Shown piece after piece: positions 6,490-64,000 of a stretch of DNA of 64,000 bases. The stretch is from Candidatus Omnitrophota bacterium (GTDB lineage: Bacteria; Omnitrophota; Gorgyraeia; Aquiviventales; Aquiviventaceae). The translations under genes and the position numbers were made by a program. A model generated the notes under the pieces. It was not told the origin of the DNA. It did no database searches and saw only the letters and a list, made by a program, of their open reading frames with translations. The DNA lies in assembly GCA_016180575.1 (NCBI GenBank), contig JACPAY010000006.1:10165-74164 (forward strand), written 5' to 3'. The stretch's first letter is position 1. The number at the start of each line of letters is the position of its first letter.

Positions 6490-6539
6490 GAAAAGTACCG
6501 GGTACTTCTCAAAGCAGAAAAAGTACCGCGTACTTTTTC
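6490..6539. repeat. REP doublet (two AAAAGTAC-NNN-GTACTTTT hairpins)
   Basis: GAAAAGTACCGGGTACTTCTC (6490-6510) and GAAAAAGTACCGCGTACTTTTTC (6517-6539), about 140 nt upstream of the RAYT gene. Confidence 0.85.
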
Positions 6540-6678
6540 TGGTGCGGGAGTCGGGTCTGGTATTATACAATAAGTTGGTTTCGGGTCTCCCTTCCGTACC
6601 ACGCTCCCATCAGACCCTCCGTTGTCGCTGCTGCCCAAAGTAGCCGGTATTTTTGGGTTGATGAAAGGGGGGGTTGGA

Positions 6679-7374
6679 ATGCCACGGCGCCATCGAGACT
6701 GGCTTCCAGGAGGCATCTACCATATCACTGTGCGAGGGAATAATCGTCAAGCTATTTTCCTCGACGACATCGACTACCAGCAATACCTCCTGGAACTTCG
6801 TCGCAGTCGGGACGAATACCCCTACCGACTTTTGGCGTTCGCGTTGATGCCGAATCACGTGCACCTGGTCATGGAGGCCTTGCCGGATGCCTGCCTCTCT
6901 GACGTCATGCATCAGGTGGGTAAGAGCTACACGCGCTACTTCAACGGACAGCACGATCGCGTCGGCCATTTGTATCAGGGCCGCTTCTACAGCAACCTGG
7001 TCAATCGAGAATCTTATCTGCTCGAGGTCACCCGTTACGTCCACCTCAATCCATTTCGAGCAAGCCTTGTGCGCCGACCTGCCGAGTACCTCTGGAGCAG
7101 CTATCGCACCTACCTTGGGCTGGAGCGTGATCTGCTGGACCTCGTGAGCCCTCAACGAATTTTGGAGTTGTTCGGCACTACGTTTGCCGAACAGATTGAG
7201 CGATACCGAAGCTTTGTCGAGCAGCTTGTAACCGAGGAGGAGAAGGCGCGGGCGTGGCTACGGAAGTTGTACCGCGAGAAGCTGATCCCCCCACAACGCT
7301 GGCTCTTTCCTCGACCATCACCTCAAAAAGTACCGGGTACTTTTTCCGCTTTGGGAAGTACCCGGTACTTTTAG
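6679..7374 (+). CDS. REP-associated tyrosine transposase (RAYT; IS200-like Y1/HUH transposase)
   Basis: HUH motif MPNHVHLVM and catalytic Tyr context TRYVHLNP. ATG at 6679. The C-terminal 17 codons run through the downstream REP doublet. The only clear plus-strand gene in the window. Confidence 0.8.
   Translation: MPRRHRDWLPGGIYHITVRGNNRQAIFLDDIDYQQYLLELRRSRDEYPYRLLAFALMPNHVHLVMEALPDACLSDVMHQVGKSYTRYFNGQHDRVGHLYQGRFYSNLVNRESYLLEVTRYVHLNPFRASLVRRPAEYLWSSYRTYLGLERDLLDLVSPQRILELFGTTFAEQIERYRSFVEQLVTEEEKARAWLRKLYREKLIPPQRWLFPRPSPQKVPGTFSALGSTRYF
7324..7374. repeat. REP doublet (inverted pair)
   Basis: CAAAAAGTACCGGGTACTTTTTC (7324-7346) and GGAAGTACCCGGTACTTTTAG (7354-7374). The loop is CGG in one and CCG in the other, i.e. 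opposite orientation. Overlaps the RAYT and ftsA stop codons. Confidence 0.85.
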
Positions 7375-27505: not shown

Positions 27506-30874
<3,369 letters not shown>

Positions 30875-36523: not shown

Positions 36524-36600
36524 TGGTCGGGGCGCTGGGATTTGAACCCAGGACCTCCTGGTCCCGAACCAGGCGCTCTACCAAACTGAGCCACGCCCCG
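36524..36600 (-). tRNA. tRNA-Pro (anticodon CGG), CCA encoded
   Basis: Hand-folded cloverleaf. Acceptor CGGGGCG/CGCCCCG, D arm GCTC/GAGC, anticodon stem CCTGG/CCAGG with loop TTCGGGA, T arm CTGGG-TTCAAAT-CCCAG, then ACCA. Confidence 0.9.
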
Positions 36601-36804: not shown

Positions 36805-37164
36805 TCAGAGGATCGCTGATTCAACGATGAGGGGTGCCAGTTTCCGCAGCACCTCAGCAAGTGTCACCGTTGGCGCCGCGCAACAAAAACGAGCTCTCCT
36901 CGCCTTCCAATCCAGACTCTTGACTTGGTCCGCTAACACGACTCCCGATACCTCTAACCCTTTAGGAATGGGCACCTCAAACGGATAGCCTTTGACTTGG
37001 GTCGTAATGGGACAAACGAGCGCAAGTCCAACCTTCTTATTGTATAGTTCTGGAGACAAGATCAGGGCGGGTCGATGGCCAGCCTGCTCATGCCCTGCTT
37101 GAGGGGTAAATATCAGCCACACAATATCGCCTCGCTTGGGGTAATACGGGCCAGACATTACCAC
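36805..37164 (-). CDS. mazF: MazF/PemK-family endoribonuclease toxin
   Basis: 119 aa (PKRGDIVWLIFTPQAGHEQAGHRPALILSP, VCPITT). Confidence 0.85.
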   Translation of the reverse strand: MVMSGPYYPKRGDIVWLIFTPQAGHEQAGHRPALILSPELYNKKVGLALVCPITTQVKGYPFEVPIPKGLEVSGVVLADQVKSLDWKARRARFCCAAPTVTLAEVLRKLAPLIVESAIL

Positions 37165-37415
37165 GCTTCCTGTCCCACCCGCCCTCCCCAGTCAAGTTCC
37201 GTGTGACGATTGCCCTTTGTCACCCCTCGGAGTAATTGCGTCAAGGTATAGTGCTGGCGCCGTGTTGGCTTCACTACGATCTTACCTGCGATCAGCGCAA
37301 TATCCACCACCGACCCCTGGCGGAGATGGATATCCCTTGCCACCGACCGGGGAATCCGCAAGGCCAGGCTATTGCCCCACTTTTGGACCATCGTGTTCAT
37401 GTCATTCCTCCTCAC
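37158..37415 (-). CDS. mazE: MazE/AbrB-type antitoxin
   Basis: SpoVT/AbrB fold signature (VQKWGNSLALRIPRSVA). Overlaps the mazF start by 7 nt. GTG at 37415, or an ATG 5 codons in. Confidence 0.8.
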   Translation of the reverse strand: MRRNDMNTMVQKWGNSLALRIPRSVARDIHLRQGSVVDIALIAGKIVVKPTRRQHYTLTQLLRGVTKGNRHTELDWGGRVGQEAW

Positions 37416-37424
37416 GTAGTGTAT

Positions 37425-37913
37425 CTACAATGAGTATACATATCTTGCCAACCCATTGCAAACTTTAGCGGCGGGGCTATCCGGTGCTGTCTCAATTTGG
37501 CGGGTCCTGCCGCGCCGCCACCCCGTCGGCTGTCCTCGGCCTTCGCCTGCGGGCAGGCGACGGGGTCCCCGGCTCTGCGTCAGGAAGATGAAACAGAGCA
37601 GCACGGCGGGCTCGCCGTGATTCTGAATGGGCCAGAACCCTTTGGGCTGATGGAACTGAAAGTAGGCCACCGCCATTTCCCCTGACAGCACGAAGGCGAT
37701 GGGCCGCGTGAAGAGCCCCAGCATCACCGCGGCACCGCCGTAGAACTCGAGCGCCCCCCCGATCCACGTCTGCGACAGGAACGAGGGGTGGCCGCCGAAC
37801 TCGGACGGGATGCCGCCGAACCAATCGAACAGCTTCATGCCTCCGGCCTGGAGGAACAAGAGGCCCGCGACGATGCGGAGCAGGAAGTGCGTGACCTGTC
37901 TGGCCCGGTCCAT
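37425..37913 (-). CDS. DoxX-family membrane protein with repeat-derived C-terminal tail
   Basis: The first ~113 aa are DoxX-like (LRIVAGLLFLQAGGMKLF...). The last ~50 aa are encoded by the GC-rich repeat and the sequence beyond it. Confidence 0.75.
   Translation of the reverse strand: MDRARQVTHFLLRIVAGLLFLQAGGMKLFDWFGGIPSEFGGHPSFLSQTWIGGALEFYGGAAVMLGLFTRPIAFVLSGEMAVAYFQFHQPKGFWPIQNHGEPAVLLCFIFLTQSRGPRRLPAGEGRGQPTGWRRGRTRQIETAPDSPAAKVCNGLARYVYSL
37483..37582. repeat. GC-rich long-hairpin repeat, copy 1 (left TIR only)
   Basis: GGTGCTGTCTCAATTTGGCGGGTCCTGCCGCGCCGCCACCCCGTCGGCTGTCCTC-ggccttcgcc-TGCGGGCAGGCGACGGGGTCCCCGGCTCTGCGTCA. Aligns with copies at 44911, 53120 and 63652. Confidence 0.9.
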
Positions 37914-42583: not shown

Positions 42584-42713
42584 TCCGCCGGGCCGGGGGG
42601 TACTGTCCTAATTTGCCCCCACCTTTCTTTGAATCTTATCAAGCATTTTAGCCATGTTCCATAACATACCCATCTGACCAATCGTAAGAATAAGTATTAC
42701 GCCTACGATCTTT

Positions 42714-43541
42714 TCAATTGCCATTTTCCCTCCAGGTTAACGCCCCCTTCACTAATTTCTCCAAACTCCAGATATGGTCAGTTATACCAGCCGCCATTGC
42801 CGGTGTCATCTTCAACGTACGGTGTACCCTGCACAGGTTGTAGTGACCGAAATGCAAGGCTAAAGCAGCTACCAAGTTCTCGGATTTCTTGCTGAACGCA
42901 TTGGTTTTACGGGCAATCCGTCTGACGCTCATCCGCATCGTGAGGTTGTTGCGCTCCACATACGAGGTTGAAATCTTGTCGAGCTTCGGATAACCAGCCA
43001 CCACGCTAGGCCGCGCCCCGATACACTCATCCCCTGAGTAAATTTTCACTAACTGCCCGAAGTGTACCTCTGTCCCGAATGCGACCTCAGCCGCGTCCAC
43101 ATAGGCAGGGAAGCCGTCGGTCGAAAGCTGAAACTCCCCCACGATGCGCTTGCGGAGATCGCTCATCAGCCGCAAGGCGGTGTAGCCGTTGCGGTGGCCG
43201 GTCGTGTGGCTGATGACTAGCTTGCTCTCAGCATCGAGGGCGACAAAGACCCACACCTCTCCGCTGTAGCCGTTCATCACCAAGCCGTGATACTCAGGGT
43301 TGTTTTTCTTTCCTATGAACGTGCAAAGCTCGTCTGCTTGGACATAGTTGACCTTCAAACCCTTGATCTGTTCGTCCAACATCTTCTGTGCTGCCTGACC
43401 TGCCCGAACGTGCCAGCGCATGATCGTATCACGGTGAACGCCTGTAATGCGCTCTAGGGAGCGAATGGACTGGCCTTCAACGAGACCATTCAGCAAGATT
43501 AAGATTTTCTCTTTACTCAGCACATTCATATGAGAACACAT
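42714..43541 (-). CDS. IS1-superfamily DDE transposase
   Basis: 275 aa. N-terminal HTH (SIRSLERITGVHRDTIMRW) and DDE-region landmarks (ADELCTF, STDGFPAY, SYVERNNLTMRM...KTNAFSK). The likely start is the ATG at 43529. Confidence 0.85.
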   Translation of the reverse strand: MCSHMNVLSKEKILILLNGLVEGQSIRSLERITGVHRDTIMRWHVRAGQAAQKMLDEQIKGLKVNYVQADELCTFIGKKNNPEYHGLVMNGYSGEVWVFVALDAESKLVISHTTGHRNGYTALRLMSDLRKRIVGEFQLSTDGFPAYVDAAEVAFGTEVHFGQLVKIYSGDECIGARPSVVAGYPKLDKISTSYVERNNLTMRMSVRRIARKTNAFSKKSENLVAALALHFGHYNLCRVHRTLKMTPAMAAGITDHIWSLEKLVKGALTWRENGN

Positions 43542-43558
43542 ATGTTCATTTAATAGGC

Positions 43559-43584
43559 AAAAAAATATCCCTCAGCGCTGAGGG
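43559..43584 (-). terminator. intrinsic terminator after the HTH gene
   Basis: 16-nt perfect palindrome CCCTCAGCGCTGAGGG (43569-43584, includes the stop codon), followed on the coding strand by AUAUUUUUUU. Confidence 0.6.
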
Positions 43585-43760
43585 AGAATGCCCTTTGATT
43601 GAAGTATGACTTGGTACGCCCTAGAAACCTTGGTCTTGCCTGTCAGCCACCGATTAACCGTCTGGACAGGTGCACCAATCTCGGCGGCAAACTCGTATTG
43701 CTTCTTGTCGTGACGAGCGAGGTAGACGTTGATCTGGCGAATAAGTTCCTTGTCGCCCAT
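43572..43760 (-). CDS. Cro/XRE-type helix-turn-helix protein
   Basis: 62 aa (KKQYEFAAEIGAPVQTVNRWLTGKTKVS). Confidence 0.8.
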   Translation of the reverse strand: MGDKELIRQINVYLARHDKKQYEFAAEIGAPVQTVNRWLTGKTKVSRAYQVILQSKGILPQR

Positions 43761-43806
43761 TGCGATACGATACTATCATATGTGTTCTCATGTGTCGATA
43801 TCAATT

Positions 43807-44136
43807 TTATTCAAATGCATCGACAATTTGAACTGGCAATGTAATTGGTTTGACGTTCTCTGGCGCTGGTGGCGGCGCAATAGTATCTACCTTTGGTTTT
43901 GTTGGTCGAGTGATCGGCTCAAGAGAAAGTCTATTTCTGATGATATAGTGTATATTTTTTTCTTTTTCGGGTGTGAAAAGTATTCCTCGAAATCTACCTT
44001 GCAAATCCCAAACAAGCTCTCCTTCAATCCAACCAAGATGATCGCCGTCTCTAGAAAACAAAAGTCCCTCTTTGAAGAACCCAAGGTAATTTCCGTTCGT
44101 CTTATAAACATGCTTTATGGTTATAGTGACAGTCAT
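43807..44136 (-). CDS. small beta-rich hypothetical protein
   Basis: 109 aa with Gly-hydrophobic beta-hairpin-like repeats (NGNYLGFFKEGLLFSRDGDHLGWIEGELVWDLQGRFRGILF) and a Pro-rich tail. ATGA overlap with the protease gene stop. Confidence 0.5.
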   Translation of the reverse strand: MTVTITIKHVYKTNGNYLGFFKEGLLFSRDGDHLGWIEGELVWDLQGRFRGILFTPEKEKNIHYIIRNRLSLEPITRPTKPKVDTIAPPPAPENVKPITLPVQIVDAFE

Positions 44137-44810
44137 GGGGTAATTATTTTATGATCAGGAATATAGTTAGCAGGTACAGCATAACCCATACCTAGATTAA
44201 CGTTACTCACTAGAGCCTTATATATTTCAACTATATCGATACCATGTAAGGACAATGCCCCTACGCTCATATTTTCAATTGCTTCCAACAACCGGTTATG
44301 TTGCCTTCTCTTCAGGTTAACAACTCCCAAAACTTTCCCTTCTGTGTCCATTAAAGGACAACCGCTATTGCCAGAGTTAACTGTTCCATCGATAGCATAA
44401 GTAGTTATGCCAGCCGCATCTTTAATTATTGCAGAAATGATTCCTTGATGGGTTGTAAGGTGCTCGGAACTAAATGGATAACCTGAAAAAATTACACGCA
44501 GCCCCTCGGTAACTGGATTGATAAGACTAATTGGTAGAGGATTTCGTGTGGAGTCATCAAACTTTAGAAGCGCTAGATCGTGTTCCTCGTCCTTTATAAT
44601 AACTTTGCTTGTAATCGCGGCATTTGTGTCAGGAAATTTTATAGCAACAGCGCTGGCATCTTTTACGACGTGATTACAGGTTACCAAAATATTCTTGGTT
44701 CCAAAAACGAACCCGCTTCCAGTGCTGAAGAGTTTTTGGGCAGGGTCGAGTACGGCAAGAACAAGAGCAATGCTCGGCTTGACCTGCTTGATAACGGGGG
44801 AGTGATCCAT
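44133..44810 (-). CDS. cytoplasmic trypsin-fold (S1/Trypsin_2-like) serine protease
   Basis: Start at internal ATG 44810 (MDHSPVIKQVK...). Triad contexts TCNHVV / EHDLALLKF / GNSGCPL. No signal peptide. The upstream ORF-track residues cross the TIR and GC repeat and were rejected. Confidence 0.8.
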   Translation of the reverse strand: MDHSPVIKQVKPSIALVLAVLDPAQKLFSTGSGFVFGTKNILVTCNHVVKDASAVAIKFPDTNAAITSKVIIKDEEHDLALLKFDDSTRNPLPISLINPVTEGLRVIFSGYPFSSEHLTTHQGIISAIIKDAAGITTYAIDGTVNSGNSGCPLMDTEGKVLGVVNLKRRQHNRLLEAIENMSVGALSLHGIDIVEIYKALVSNVNLGMGYAVPANYIPDHKIITP

Positions 44811-44910
44811 CGGGATGAGGTGATAATATAGCACTAGGAAGCATGAAAGGTAAGCGAATTTTGAGCTTCGGTTGGATTGCCAAATTAGGACACTACCGGC
44901 CGGGGGGTGC

Positions 44911-45028
44911 TGTCTCAATTTGGCGGGTCCTGCCGCGCCGCCACCCCGTCGGCTGTCCTCCCCCGCCATGGCGGGGTGCGGGCAGGCGACGGGGTCCCCG
45001 GCTCTGCGTCACCCGCCAAATTGAGACA
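44911..45028. repeat. GC-rich long-hairpin repeat, copy 2 (complete, perfect 18-bp TIRs)
   Basis: TGTCTCAATTTGGCGGGT ... ACCCGCCAAATTGAGACA enclose the conserved arms and a CCCCGCC-AT-GGCGGGG apex. Ends 13 nt from the smc stop. Confidence 0.9.
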
Positions 45029-45041
45029 CGATCGGCCGGGG

Positions 45042-48000
45042 TCAGGCCGGCACGGGCGCGGCGGGTTGGGCCCCGGGCGTGAGCTTGGCGGAGAGGATCT
45101 TGGAGATGCCGGCCTCCTCCATGGTGACGCCATAGAGCGAGTCGGCCTTGGTGATGGTCTTCTTGTTGTGGGTGACGAGGATGAACTGGGAGAGCGCCAG
45201 GAACTCCTCAAGCACCCGGGTGAAGCGGTCCACGTTCGCCTCATCGAGCGGCGCATCGATCTCATCCAGGATGCAGAAGGGCGAGGGGCGGACCTTGAAG
45301 AGCGCAAAGAGGAGCGCCACCGCCGTCAGCGCCCGCTCGCCGCCGGAGAGGAGGCTGATGCTCTGGAGCCGCTTGCCTGGCGGGCGCGCCACGATGTCGA
45401 TGCCGGACTCAAGGACCTCCTCCTCATCCAGGAGGATGAGGTCGGCCTCGCCGCCGTTGAAGAGCCGCGCGTAGTAGTGCTTGAACTCCTCGGTGATGCG
45501 CGCGAAGGTCTCGCGGAACTGCGCGCGCGCCGTGCGGTTGATCTGGGTGATGGAGGCCTTGAGGTCATCGCGCGCCTGGACGAGGTCCTGCTGCTGCGTC
45601 TGGAGGAACTCGAAGCGCCGCTTCAGCTCGTCGTACTCCTCGACCGAGCCCAGGCTCACCGGGCCGATGCCCTCGAGCTTGGCCCGGAGCTTCTGGATCT
45701 GCTCGGCGTCGAATGCGCGCTGCTCCTCGGTGAGCGGCGAGGGGTTGGCCTGCTGCTCGGTCTGCACCGCCGCCTCGTCGATCTGGTAGAGCTCCCGCAG
45801 GCGCTCCACCAGGTGCGAGCGGCGGAACGCCCGCTCGGAGAGCTGCTGAGCCTGCTCCTGGATCTCGCGCATCAGGGCGGAGAGCTGCTGCTCCACCGCC
45901 AGGAAGTGCGGCAGGAGCTGGTCGCGCTTGGCTTCCTCCTCGCGCAGCGCCTGGCCGACGGTCGCGGCCTCCGCTTCGACGCGCGCGCGCTCCTCCTGGA
46001 GCTGGCGGCCGCCCGCCTCATGGGCCTCCACCTGCTGCGCAAGCTCCGCGGAGCGCGCCTGCGCATCAACCCGCTGCTTGGCCTTCGCCTCAAGCTGCTG
46101 GGCGAGCTGCGCGCGGTCTGATTCCACCTCATGGACGCGGGCCTCGAGCGCGCCGAGCCGCTCGGTCAGCGACTGCAGGCTCGCCTCGACCTGCGCCCGG
46201 GCGATCAGCAGCTCCTGCTTGCGCTGCTCGGACGCCTCGCGCGAGGCCTGTGCCTCCGCGAGCGAGCGCTCAAGCGTCTGCTGGCGGCGCTCCGCCTCCT
46301 CGACCGCCTGCCGCGCCGCCGCAAGCGACGCCTGCAACTCCGCCTGCCGCGCGGCGAGCTCCTGCATCTCGAGCTCGCCCGCCGCGCGCTCCTCATCGAG
46401 CCGCTGCATCTCCCGCGCGAGCTGCCCAAGCTGCGCATCGAGCTTGTGCAGGGCAGGCAGAGCCTGCGCAAAGCGGCCCCTGGCCGACTCCTGCTCCGTC
46501 AGGCACGTCTGCCAGGCCTGCTCCGCCTCCGCCGCCTCCGATTCGAGCCGCAGGAACTCCAGCTCCCGCGCCTGAAGCGCCGACTGTCCCTGCTCCCAGC
46601 GCTGCTTCCGTCCGAGCCGCCCGTGCGCCGGCGCGCGGGTCCCGCCGAAGCGCCACGACCGGCGGTCCCACCGGTCGCCGCGAACGCTCACGAGCCGTCC
46701 CTGCGGCGCGGCGCGGCCGGCGAGCAGCCGCTGGATGTCATCGATGACCCAGGAATCGTTCAGGAGCCAGTCCACGAGCGGCTGGTACTCCGGCTCGGCG
46801 CGCACGAACTCCTTCACGGCGCCGGTGACCCCCTCGCTGACCTCCACCCGCTCCATCGAGAGCGCCACGGGGCAGTCGGAGAGGACGAGGAATCGGCATC
46901 CCGCCAGCTGCTGCGTGCTCATCGCCTGGCGGCAGCGCGAGAGCGCCGCGCGGTCGCGCACCACGAGCGCGTCGGCCAGCGGCCCCAGCGCGGCCTCCAC
47001 CACCTCTTCATAGCCGGGCTGCGCCTGGACGAGGTCCACGAGCGGGCCGATGAGCCCGTCGATGGATTGCGTCATCAGCGACTTCACCGTGTCCGGAAAC
47101 CCTTCATAGCGCCGCCAGAGGTCCTCCCAGAGCGCGACCTGGGCGCGCTCGCTCGCCAGCTGGTCGCGCACCTGGTGGAGCCGCCCGGCCAGCTCATGGC
47201 GCCTGGCCCCGGATGCGTCGAGCGACCGCTGGGCGATGGCGAGGCTGCTTTGGAGCTCATCGTGCTGCTGCTGGAGCGTCTCGCGCTCCTGCTGGATGGC
47301 CTGGTGGCGGCGCCGCGTCTCTTCCGACTGGGCCGCCCGCTGCGCGCGGCCGGCATCGAGGCGCGCGAGCTGCGCCTCCAACCCCTGCAGCTGCGACGTC
47401 AGCTCCGCGAGCTCGTTCCGCTGGCGGGACGCCTCGGCGGCCGCCTCGAAGAGCTCGGCCTTGGCGCCGGTGAGGGCGCGCAGCGCCGCCTCGACCGCCG
47501 CGGCCAGCGTCGAGAGCTCCTCGCCGCCCTGGCTGAGCTGCCCCTGGACAGCCGCAAGCTGCGCGCGGATCTCCGATTCGGCCCCGCCGAGGCGCGAGCG
47601 CTGCTCCTCAAGCTGCCCGAGCCGCGCGCGCAGCTGGAGCTCCTCCTGCTCCAATCCCTGTGTCTGCGCCCCCAGCTCCCCGATCCAGCGCGCCTTGAGG
47701 GCGCGCTGGCTCTCGTGCTGCTCAATCTGGCTTGCGCACTCGACCGCCTTGGTGCGCAGCGCCTGGAGCTGCTGCTGGACCGCGGAGACGGCGCTGTTGG
47801 CCGCTTCAAGCGAACTCATGTGCGCGGTCTTCTGGGCCTCCCGCTCGTCGCGCTCGCGCTGCAGCGCCTGCACGCGCGCCTCGAGCTCCTTGTGGCGGCT
47901 CTCGCCGCCGCACAGCTCATCCACCGCCAGGCGCAGCTCGAGCGACTTGAGCTGCTCCCATTGCGTCTTGTACTGGCGCGCCTTGTTCGCGGCCCGCTCC

Positions 48001-53102: not shown

Positions 53103-53119
53103 GAAAAAAGTACCGCGGG

Positions 53120-53212
53120 TGACGCGGAGCCGGGGACCCCGCCGCCTGCCCGCAGTCCCGCCGATGGCGGGACGAGGACAGCCGGTGGGGTGGCGGCGCG
53201 GCAGGACCCGCG
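53120..53212. repeat. GC-rich long-hairpin repeat, copy 3 (inverted orientation)
   Basis: TGACGCGGAGCCGGGGACCCCGCCGCCTGCCCGCA-gtcccgccgatggcgggac-GAGGACAGCCGGTGGGGTGGCGGCGCGGCAGGACCCGC. Ends 4 nt from the pilO-like stop. Confidence 0.9.
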
Positions 53213-53216
53213 GGCG

Positions 53217-61182: not shown

Positions 61183-61210
61183 GAAAAAAGGCACCGGTTC
61201 CTATTTTTTC
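61183..61210. repeat. AT-clamped palindrome variant (A6-GGCACCGGTTCCTA-T6)
   Basis: GGAAAAAAGGCACCGGTTCCTATTTTTTC starts at the fabF stop codon, in the 51-nt fabF-gspE spacer. Confidence 0.8.
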
Positions 61211-62462
61211 AACCGCTGAACTTCCGGAACACCACGGTGGCGTTGTGGCCCCCGAAGCCGAGCGAGTTGGAGACCACCGCTTCCACCGGCGCCTTGCGCG
61301 CCTCATTGGGGATGTAGTCGAGGTCGCAGGCCGGGTCCGGGTGCTCGTAGTTGATGGTCGGCGGCATCACGCCGTCCCGGATGGCGAGCACGGAGATGAC
61401 CCCCTCGACCCCGCCGGCCCCCCCGATGAGGTGGCCCATCATCGATTTGGTGGAGGAAACCGCCACCCGCTTGGCGGCGTCCTTGAACGTCGCCTTGATG
61501 GCCAGCGTCTCGATCTTGTCGTTGAGGTCCGTGGAGGTCCCGTGCGCGTTGAGGTAGCTCACCTGGTCGGGGCGCATCCGCGCGTCCTCCAGCGCCATCG
61601 CCATCGCCTTGGCCGCCCCCGCCCCCTCCGGGTCGGGCGCGGTCATGTGGAAGGCGTCCGCCGTCGCCCCGTAGCCGGCCATCTCGGCGTAGATTCTGGC
61701 CCCCCGCCGCTTGGCGTGCTCCAGCTCCTCCAGGACCAGGACGCCGGCGCCCTCGCCGATGACGAAGCCGTCCCGCTCCTTGTCGAAGGGGCGGCTCGCC
61801 TTGGCCGGCTCGTCGTTGCGGCGGGAGAGCGCCATGAGGGCGCAGAATCCGCCCACCGTCAGGGGCGTGATGCAGCTTTCGGTGCCGCCGCCCAGCATGA
61901 CGTCGGCGAGGCCCCGCTGGATGATGCGGAACGCCTCCCCGAGCCCGTGCGCGCCCGAGGCGCAGGCGCTCGTCGTGCAGAAGTTCGGGCCCTTCCATCC
62001 CAGGTCCATCGCCACCTGGCCCGGCGCCATGTTGCAGATGAGCATCGGGATCATGAAGGGGCTGAGCCGCTTCGGCCCCTTCGCCACGAGGGTGCTGTGC
62101 TGCTGCTCGATCAAATGCATGCTCCCGATGCCGGTGCCGATGACGACCCCGAACCGGAAGGGATCGGCGGGTGCTCCCGTGAGCCCGGCGTCCGCCACCG
62201 CCTGCTTGCCGGCGGCGATGGCGAACTGCACGAACCGCTCGCTCCGCTTGATCTCCTTGGGGCTGAGGTACTGCGCCGGGTCGAACCCCTTCACCTCGGC
62301 GGCGATTCGGGATTCAAGGGCGCCCGCATCGAAGCAGCTGATGGGGCCGACGCCGCTCGTCCCGGCCAGCAGCGAGCGCCACATGGCGGGCACGTCGTTG
62401 CCCACCGGCGTCACCGCCCCAAGCCCTGTCACCACCACTCGTCGAAAATCGGGGACAGCCAC
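61209..62462 (-). CDS. fabF: 3-oxoacyl-ACP synthase II
   Basis: 417 aa. KAS II active-site Cys (TSACASG) and His motifs ([17 protein letters not shown]). GTG start preceded by GGAG. Confidence 0.9.
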
Positions 62463-63624: not shown

Positions 63625-64000
63625 CTATCGAAAACGTTGTCTGGCCGCGGGTGACGCGGAGCCGGGGACCCCGCCGCCTGCCCGCAGGCCGACGAGGCCG
63701 AGGACAGCCGGCGGGGTGGCGGCGCGGCAGGACCCGCGGCGGGCGGCCGGCTCCGGCAGATGGGCGGGCTTCAGCGTCCCCTCCTCATAGAGGCCGATGA
63801 TGGCGTCCACCACGATGGGGTCGAACTGGACGCCCCGGTTGCGCCGCAGCTCCCCGATCGCCCCCTCGATCGGCATCCCCTTGCGGTAGGGGCGGTCGGT
63901 GACCATCGCGTCAAAGGCGTCCACCACCGTGGCGATGCGCGCCCCGATGGGGATCTGCTCGCCCTTGAGCCCTTCCGGGTAGCCGGAGCCGTCGTACGCC
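63625..64000 (-). CDS. HD-GYP domain protein, 3' part (gene enters from beyond the window)
   Basis: Hand translation from 64000: AYDGSGYPEGLKGEQIPIGARIATVVDAFDAMVTDRPYRKGMP...FDPIVVDA. The last ~37 codons are repeat-derived. Confidence 0.75.
   Translation of the reverse strand, partial: AYDGSGYPEGLKGEQIPIGARIATVVDAFDAMVTDRPYRKGMPIEGAIGELRRNRGVQFDPIVVDAIIGLYEEGTLKPAHLPEPAARRGSCRAATPPAVLGLVGLRAGGGVPGSASPAARQRFR
63652..63737. repeat. GC-rich long-hairpin repeat, copy 4 (inverted orientation)
   Basis: TGACGCGGAGCCGGGGACCCCGCCGCCTGCCCGCA-ggccgacgaggcc-GAGGACAGCCGGCGGGGTGGCGGCGCGGCAGGACCCGC. Lies inside the 3' end of the HD-GYP ORF. Confidence 0.9.

Follow-up and report, generated by a model that had tools for sequence, protein, structure and literature searches.

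A GC-rich hairpin repeat in an Omnitrophota genome as probable palindromic mobile DNA, with one copy resembling an IS1-family MITE

Introduction

Several kinds of short palindromic DNA described in bacteria invite comparison with the GC-rich hairpin repeat treated here, which occurs four times in a stretch of 64,000 nucleotides from a Candidatus Omnitrophota bacterium (GenBank assembly GCA_016180575.1, contig JACPAY010000006.1, positions 10,165 to 74,164 of the forward strand). This whole stretch is called the window below, and positions are counted from its first letter. Insertion sequences (IS) of the IS1 family duplicate 8-9 bp of their target. Repetitive extragenic palindromic (REP) sequences are much shorter palindromes with a conserved GTAG-type tetranucleotide. 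Correia repeat enclosed elements (CREE), which duplicate TA, are known only from Neisseria, and enterobacterial repetitive intergenic consensus (ERIC) sequences only from enterobacteria. Rickettsia palindromic elements (RPE), of about 100-150 bp, lie between genes and in open reading frames (ORFs), where they are read in frame and add peptide segments to proteins (PMC10969869).

[quoted passage not shown] It differs in its interior, a hairpin module kept in other genomes without IS1 ends rather than an IS remnant, in that the wider core family conserves its centre and not its termini, and in the match of its inverted repeats to those of the neighbouring transposon (14/18). With REP sequences, REPINs (REP doublets forming hairpins) and bacterial interspersed mosaic elements (BIMEs), the repeat has in common that it is a GC-rich imperfect palindrome, extragenic at gene ends, in either orientation and sometimes in inverted pairs, with naked cores that lack a target duplication, with lineage-specific sequence and with homogeneity within a genome. 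Its core of 75-100 nt with several conserved internal loops is, however, longer and more elaborate than a REP, a subset of cores has IS1-type ends and 8-bp duplications, and the gene in the window that resembles a REP-associated tyrosine transposase (RAYT) is flanked by another palindrome. The likeness to RPEs is one of way of life and not of homology, the core being read through in the tails of doxX and an HD-GYP gene and in both linkers of the E2 acyltransferase discussed below. The hosts of the core are environmental bacteria of 38-74% GC, and its length shows no bias to multiples of three; no kinship in sequence is expected, and RPEs are not known to have IS-type ends or duplications. Correia and ERIC elements are likewise about 100-150 bp long, fold as long hairpins, occur in intergenic regions that are transcribed and can alter the 3' or 5' ends of neighbouring transcripts, but neither shares the GGGUCCUG...CACCC core.

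Altogether, we consider the repeat to be non-autonomous palindromic mobile DNA, a MITE/REP-like family and not an RNA gene, at a probability of about 0.8, and hold with equal confidence that an IS1-family-type MITE is the best explanation of the flagged copy. The family falls within known palindromic selfish DNA (MITE, REP, RPE), as an apparently undescribed member with an unusually conserved centre.

The flagged copy and the adjoining transposon

Copy 2 had been described as having a perfect 18-bp inverted repeat, and this is present (TGTCTCAATTTGGCGGGT, 44911-44928 and 45011-45028); the element proper extends a little beyond 44911-45028, running from 44906 to 45033. The features of the site are listed below, with scores in bits, in this list and in that of the other copies, from a covariance model that was built from relatives and run over the window.

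42591-42598: GGCCGGGG, left TSD of the transposon (from sequence and inverted-repeat coordinates)
42599-44897, minus strand: IS1-family transposon of 2.3 kb, a low-GC island (from inverted repeats and transposase)
42599-42616, plus strand: transposon inverted repeat GGTACTGTCCTAATTTGC
42714-43541, minus strand: transposase ORF (275 aa; Pfam DDE_Tnp_IS1, E 3.3e-10)
43599-43760, minus strand: small ORF upstream of the transposase, without a family match
43807-44136: passenger gene for a Bflower protein (4-fold beta-flower)
44133 to about 44850: passenger gene for a trypsin-like peptidase
44880-44897, minus strand: transposon inverted repeat GGTAGTGTCCTAATTTGG
44898-44905: 8-bp GGCCGGGG, right TSD of the transposon and left TSD of the putative MITE, exactly between the right inverted repeat of the former (ending at 44897) and the left inverted repeat of the latter
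44906-45033, plus strand: copy 2, putative complete MITE of 128 bp (from sequence and inverted repeats; 66.4 bits)
44906-44923: left inverted repeat of copy 2, GGTGCTGTCTCAATTTGG
44925-45014: conserved hairpin core of copy 2
45016-45033, minus strand: right inverted repeat of copy 2, GATCGTGTCTCAATTTGG
45034-45041: 8-bp GGCCGGGG, right TSD of the putative MITE, adjoining the smc stop codon (TGA, 45042-45044, minus strand)

The three copies of GGCCGGGG are exact, have the same orientation and directly adjoin the termini of the 2.3-kb transposon and of copy 2; their position at element ends points to two insertions in the same 8-bp target, each of which duplicated it. A blind scan of the flanks for 8-mers recovered the GGCCGGGG pair, placed symmetrically about the core (offsets 19, 19). 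The smc stop codon is immediately followed by this target, and copy 2 begins 8 nt past the same codon. It has no transposase gene or ORF of its own, and nearly its whole length is hairpin (-93.6 kcal/mol, z = -8.5). Because it combines IS1-type ends with an exact 8-bp duplication, the flagged feature is most probably a MITE spanning 44906-45033.

The transposase of the adjoining transposon has IS1 as its best family in NCBIfam (74.6 bits, under the cut-off of 100 bits), and many of its more than 7400 homologues carry the source name 'IS1 family transposase'. A homologous transposon in contig L136 ends with the same inverted repeat. Between the inverted repeats of copy 2 and those of the transposon, 14 of 18 positions are identical; GGnnnTG is present, and the right repeat of copy 2 begins GATCGTG, which leaves this hallmark imperfect at that end. 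The motif is common to the IS1 and IS6 families, and IS6 elements have a target duplication of 8 bp (PMC6807381). The idea that the core is a subterminal part of such an IS was rejected: no core halves occur at the transposon ends in the window, in L130/L131 or in L136, and the covariance model found none there, which argues that the core is not an IS remnant. The passenger genes in the window sit between the transposase and the right inverted repeat, and the cargo of homologous transposons differs, consisting of PIN and NYN genes in L130/L131 and of HNH and MT-A70 methyltransferase genes in L136.

Four hairpin copies in the window

The four GC-rich hairpins previously placed at 37483-37582, 44911-45028, 53120-53212 and 63652-63737 were recovered at those positions. 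Two words from the arms, GGGTCCTGCCGCGCCGCCACCCC (a 23-mer) and TGCGGGCAGGCGRCGGGGTCCCCGGCTC (a 28-mer), were each found at exactly four places in the window, twice on the plus strand (37.5 kb, 44.9 kb) and twice on the minus strand (53.1 kb, 63.7 kb), as against zero matches in 100 dinucleotide shuffles. With filters off, the covariance model found only these four copies above noise in the whole window. Besides copy 2, they are:

37483-37582, plus strand: copy 1, of the same putative MITE subfamily as copy 2 (40.8 bits)
53113-53213, minus strand: copy 3, a naked core, with the core at 53117-53209 (48.8 bits)
63645-63739, minus strand: copy 4, a naked core, with the core at 63649-63735 (43.6 bits)

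Every copy forms a single long imperfect hairpin on either strand, with a fold better than all or nearly all shuffles (z = -2.1 to -8.5). Alignment separates copies 1 and 2 from copies 3 and 4 as two subtypes and agrees with the preliminary description on both stem changes, namely the compensatory change of T:A in copies 1 and 2 versus C:G in copies 3 and 4, and the paired switch at the stem foot (GGCGGGT/ACCCGCC versus CGCGGGT/ACCCGCG). The apex is variable, as had been stated, each copy having its own small hairpin (10, 16, 19 and 13 nt). That these lengths differ by multiples of three is a coincidence, since core length modulo three is spread 18/21/20 over 59 non-redundant relatives, and the hypothesis that reading frame governs length is rejected for the whole family. 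The placement at 3' ends of minus-strand genes also stands, with refinements for individual copies, two of which lie inside ORFs.

Orthologous sites in relatives

Gene order is kept in contigs of relatives (HD-GYP, fab genes, the operon of the type II secretion system (T2SS), MerR, secretin, SDR, smc), and two spacers could be compared:

Spacer between T2SS-M and MerR: filled in the window (copy 3), L125 and L129; empty in L124, L127 and L128
Spacer downstream of smc: filled in the window (copy 2 and the transposon); empty in L128 (66 nt)

In L129 the element is built like copy 2: the core stands between an IS1-type repeat (GGTCGTGTCTCAATTTGC) and its inverse, and the flanks (CCGTAACT/CCGCAACT) are identical at 7/8 positions. 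This element is a second, independent case of a core between inverted repeats of the same type as those of copy 2. Moreover, the exact 23-mer had a single match in species-representative genomes, in contig L001 of an Omnitrophota metagenome-assembled genome, which has two elements of this same architecture. The MITE assignment that had been offered as one option is thus supported for the flagged copy by IS1-type inverted repeats, an exact 8-bp duplication, an adjoining IS1-family transposon, and empty and filled orthologous sites. Membership of the IS1-family MITEs holds for copies 1 and 2 and for the L001 and L129 elements, and not for the whole core family. As far as sequence comparison can tell, the locus is a clear case, dated by synteny, of IS1-family MITE activity in an uncultivated phylum.

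Two side observations concern smc. In L127 (15414-20534) and L128 (12803-18073), it encodes proteins of about 1760 residues with an intein (Intein_splicing and a LAGLIDADG endonuclease); the smc ORF of the window has 1192 aa, about 570 residues fewer, consistent with no intein. The spacer after smc in L129 (18930-19035) contains GGCAAACCACGCGAAAGCGTGGGACGCAAAGCCACGG..., which resembles a c-di-GMP-I (GEMM-I) riboswitch.

Copies 1, 3 and 4 and the genes they touch

Copy 1 has its left inverted repeat at 37483-37500, and its left end and left arm are identical to those of copy 2 (55/55). Truncation after GCGTCA has cost it the final three bases of the core (CCC), its right inverted repeat and any duplication on that side. 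In doxX it takes the place of the gene's 3' end; the ORF (37425-37913, minus strand) reads through the element, with the DoxX domain at residues 10-89. Directly beside this truncated copy is a MazE/MazF toxin-antitoxin pair (36805-37415, minus strand), with a tRNA gene (36527-36600) just beyond it; both lie in a low-GC stretch (34-37.4 kb) that looks like a further inserted island beside a hairpin element.

Copy 3 has an outer stem of only 4 bp (CCGC/GCGG) without IS-type inverted repeats, and lies a few nucleotides past the stop codon of a T2SS-M/PilO-like gene, whose protein is identical to one from a 'Candidatus Omnitrophica' metagenome-assembled genome. Beyond it come a T-run and the next gene's promoter-like TTGACA-16-TATGCT. 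As a repeat would lead one to expect, the Logan assemblies of the organism break off at this copy. The arms of copy 3 hardly differ from those of its counterparts in the window, and its apex (GTCCCG...CGGGAC) is similar to the apex of the orthologous element in L125; this would fit gene conversion between copies of one genome, acting on an old insertion. Copy 4 has the same outer stem and sits within the HD-GYP ORF at its 3' end, where it encodes the last ~37 residues as a C-terminal tail; the L129 orthologue of this protein shares ...LKPAHLP(D/E)P and diverges exactly where copy 4 starts. No target duplication was found at the flanks of copies 3 and 4.

The core family beyond the window

A two-anchor pattern, GGGTCCTGCCGCG N50-80 GCGTCACCC, was searched in JGI metagenomes and viral contigs; it matched at least 120 JGI metagenome contigs, of 38-74% GC, and none of the viral contigs. 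The exact 23-mer had no match in the JGI metagenomes, and a concatenated six-frame translation of the element used as a protein query gave no hits, probably owing to low-complexity bias. The spread over very different environmental bacteria is judged from GC range and gene content and not from organism names. The core reads GGGUCCUG...CACCC, and among the matches listed all but about four fold into one common architecture, given here from the outside inwards:

outer stem of 0-40 bp, differing between lineages
GGGU/ACCC foot
conserved asymmetric loop, consisting of a CCU bulge, a G-C pair and a C-U mismatch
CGCG helix with 4-5 further covarying pairs
left C-run paired with a right G-run, followed by an unpaired (bulged) C-run whose distance to the 3' end is fixed
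variable apex

The motif of G-run and C-run is present in 41/59 non-redundant copies, and the apex often repeats the UGC/UC internal loop in either orientation, as judged by eye on the sequences, with counts made of related words only. The search itself demanded the two anchors, which accounts for part of their conservation; additional copies that the model found without selection by the pattern retain GGGTCCTG and CACCC, with variation elsewhere.

The preliminary description had stressed variation that preserves structure, and this became much stronger once relatives were added. In 61 sequences the covariation score is 0.368, compared with 0.127 in shuffled controls and about 0.1 with slid partners, and 13 pairs change on both sides. 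Between close relatives of equal length, 99 double changes preserve Watson-Crick pairing and 16 break it, counted over sequence pairs that are not independent.

Some cores belong to larger units. Two metagenome groups contain identical units of about 175-190 bp in unrelated flanks, long imperfect palindromes with terminal repeats of their own, for example CAGGGCAATCGAGTTCT...AGAACTCGATTGCCCTG; in group 1 (ends CAGGG...CCCTG), near-repeats of 8-10 bp at 2/4 copies are suggestive only. The 'group 2' element of L097 (651-810) has about 60 extra nucleotides in its apex, which may be an insertion in the hairpin loop. Tandem cores about 24-33 nt apart were seen in L016 (67-170), L105 (1879-1997) and L110 (1753-1870), as clusters reminiscent of BIMEs.

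The core also occurs in frame within the gene of E2 (dihydrolipoamide acyltransferase) in eight syntenic high-GC soil contigs, typically once in each interdomain linker around the E3-binding domain and in opposite orientations. The ORF is open through both cores in L081 and L013, and through degraded versions in orthologues; one orthologue is without the first copy. All-against-all clustering of flanking ORFs gave synteny groups only and no universal partner gene. In the collection of papers searched in full text, none had the 13-nt core string; shorter strings matched 38 papers, of which those looked at were unrelated (primers, other sequences), and a keyword search brought up only general reviews of MITEs and RPEs. 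The lack of the core string in these papers and the lack of an Rfam match are consistent with the earlier statement that the repeat is not a described family.

Weighing the explanations

Random orientation, the absence of a G-U excess, of a common neighbour gene and of an Rfam match point to a selfish element acting at the DNA level. Several observations weigh against reading the repeat as mobile DNA with IS1-type ends. The frequent compensatory double changes (99 versus 16) are unusual for neutral selfish DNA and imply a constraint on the core. Its centre is conserved and its outer stems are lineage-specific, whereas ordinary MITE families conserve their termini. As with copies 3 and 4, IS-type repeats cannot be recognised in the majority of metagenome relatives, and outer stems of 0-7 bp or unrelated outer repeats are found in most of the 59 non-redundant ones. 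A flanking 8-mer repeat was found at 21/105 loci, compared with 9.5 in controls, and most of these loci are without adjoining inverted repeats; target duplications for naked cores were rejected when this weak excess did not survive inspection. With naked cores lacking both IS repeats and a convincing duplication, the IS1 mechanism does not explain the whole family. For copy 2 itself, the inverted repeats are only 14/18 like those of the adjacent transposon, so its transposase may not be the mobiliser, and no IS with a TCTCAA-type inverted repeat was seen in the sequence looked at. Finally, we infer mobility wholly from static sequence.

These points leave room for a second reading, which we regard as possible and rather doubtful, in which the 75-100-nt core would be a self-standing hairpin module found across lineages, with machinery of its own, that seeds MITEs. 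Candidate machinery would be a single-strand DNA transposase or recombinase specific for the hairpin, or a process that keeps the arms symmetric. Outward growth by fold-back copying of flanks could yield two inverted IS ends where the core lay beside an IS, and would explain the same core in IS1-type (window, L001, L129), CAGGG-ended (metagenome group 1) and other shells.

It is unlikely that the repeat is of the REP/REPIN type, that is, a single-stranded core handled by a RAYT-type Y1 (HUH) transposase and re-inserted without target duplication, with the IS1-type ends of copies 1 and 2 as a secondary acquisition. Such a route would account for naked cores without IS-type repeats or duplication, for inverted adjacent pairs of cores in L001, L012 and the E2 loci, and for a basal loop that is conserved and strand-asymmetric, as expected of a hairpin read on one DNA strand. 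The source genome has a RAYT-like protein (6679-7371, plus strand; Y1_Tnp/IS200-like, E 1.7e-13), and one 37% identical to it is encoded 2.4 kb from a core in L056. However, the gene in the window is flanked by another, AT-rich palindrome, inverted doublets of AAAAGTACCGGGTACTTTT (6491-6544 and 7319-7372; 54-nt arms, 89% complementary), and the covariance model found no core near it. The REP/RAYT mechanism is thus unsupported for the core, and the earlier suggestion of a REPIN finds no support here. The Y1 gene of L056 is not flanked by cores either, no core-flanked Y1 gene was seen in 735 kb of sequence, and both core orientations are present within one stretch of monotonic GC skew. The RAYT-like gene with its doublets looks like a REPtron, whose repeat family is separate from the GC-rich core. 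Other palindromes, made of an A-run, a GGTACCGGTACC-like stem and a T-run (824-852, 30038-30066, 30093-30121, 61183-61211; for example GAAAAAAGGTACCGGTACCTTTTTTT), are similar to the repeats on either side of the RAYT-like gene and could also pass for bidirectional terminators.

A functional or cis-regulatory RNA, for example a protein-binding or stabilising hairpin of 3' untranslated regions that is multi-copy by chance, would fit the strong covariation, the compensatory changes among close relatives, the asymmetric internal loops, the bulged C-run at its fixed 3' distance (41/59) and fold z-scores as low as -8.5, and yet is very unlikely. Orientation between co-directional genes is 28 (+,+) versus 27 (-,-), with 19 copies between divergent and 15 between convergent genes (105 loci, crude gene calls); at lower-GC loci, where gene calls are safest, a hand tally gave 13 versus 10. 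Given the 28:27 ratio and the divergent placements, half of the transcripts would carry the reverse complement. At variable paired columns G-U/U-G combinations number 41 and A-C/C-A 48, so there is no G-U excess; over ~90 nt the copies of one genome share about 95-100% identity, with differences between genomes, and some copies lie inside ORFs. The preliminary description had proposed a scan of Rfam: at the gathering score the whole window gave nothing except a tRNA, at E <= 10 copy 2 gave chance matches only, of which MIR820 (36 of 196 bits) was the sole one on the element, and at E <= 1 nothing overlapped 12 diverse cores. The structured RNA considered earlier is therefore not supported, given random orientation, no G-U excess and no Rfam match.

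A family of intrinsic (Rho-independent) terminators selected at gene 3' ends is extremely unlikely, even though 4/4 window copies lie at or inside the 3' ends of minus-strand genes and copy 3, followed by UACUUUUUUC, was caught by a terminator scan. Only 1/4 copies (copy 3) has a T-run, and this T-run is already there at the empty orthologous site in L124, so it does not belong to the element. Copies 1 and 2 run antisense to the gene upstream of them, two copies are situated within ORFs, 19 copies in the wider family stand between divergent genes, and terminator-like sequences in the region number 5 against 5.6 in shuffles, with no excess. A terminator-like role, as suggested at first, thus finds no general support, the only T-run being older than the element it follows.

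An integron attC-type recombination site, that is, an imperfect hairpin with extrahelical bases and a variable tip at cassette 3' ends, fits in shape (an imperfect palindrome of 75-130 nt with conserved bulged bases and a variable apex, just past stop codons) but has negligible probability, as the R''/R' boxes (RYYYAAC...GTTRRRY) are absent in all copies, copies lie 7-10 kb apart among housekeeping genes in conserved synteny, both orientations occur, and no integrase is among the annotated ORFs near the copies (the window was not screened for integrase).

A possible history of the repeat

Under the preferred reading of non-autonomous mobile DNA, copies 1 and 2 would consist of a hairpin core of about 90 nt bracketed by two 18-bp IS1-type inverted repeats. 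An IS1-family DDE transposase acting in trans, supplied by the adjoining transposon or by a closer relative elsewhere in the genome, would bind these ends and insert the 128-bp unit, with duplication of 8 bp of target, the signature seen at copy 2. Copies 3 and 4 would be the same core without IS ends, either delivered earlier and since stripped of their outer repeats or arriving by another route, and gene conversion has probably kept their arms near-identical to the others in the genome. The core is a module common to many environmental bacteria, and its covariation shows that the pairing is actively kept up, whether through selection for the hairpin or through conversion between its arms. 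Effects on the host would be by-products: new C-terminal tails on DoxX and the HD-GYP protein, a hairpin placed before a pre-existing T-run after the T2SS-M gene and, in other organisms, extra in-frame linker residues in the E2 acyltransferase.

Significance for annotation and for palindrome evolution

The core family breaks short-read assemblies and makes spurious or altered gene 3' ends, as in doxX, the HD-GYP gene and the E2 linkers. Because its stems covary, the core could easily be miscalled as a non-coding RNA or a terminator, and a model for it would improve the annotation of Omnitrophota and other environmental genomes. The E2 gene offers a case like that of the RPEs, in which selfish DNA is absorbed into protein linkers. 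What is puzzling is that a single hairpin core persists over hosts of 38-74% GC under a changing outer shell; an answer to how it is conserved could bring to light a new enzyme that recognises hairpins or a general path from palindrome to MITE.

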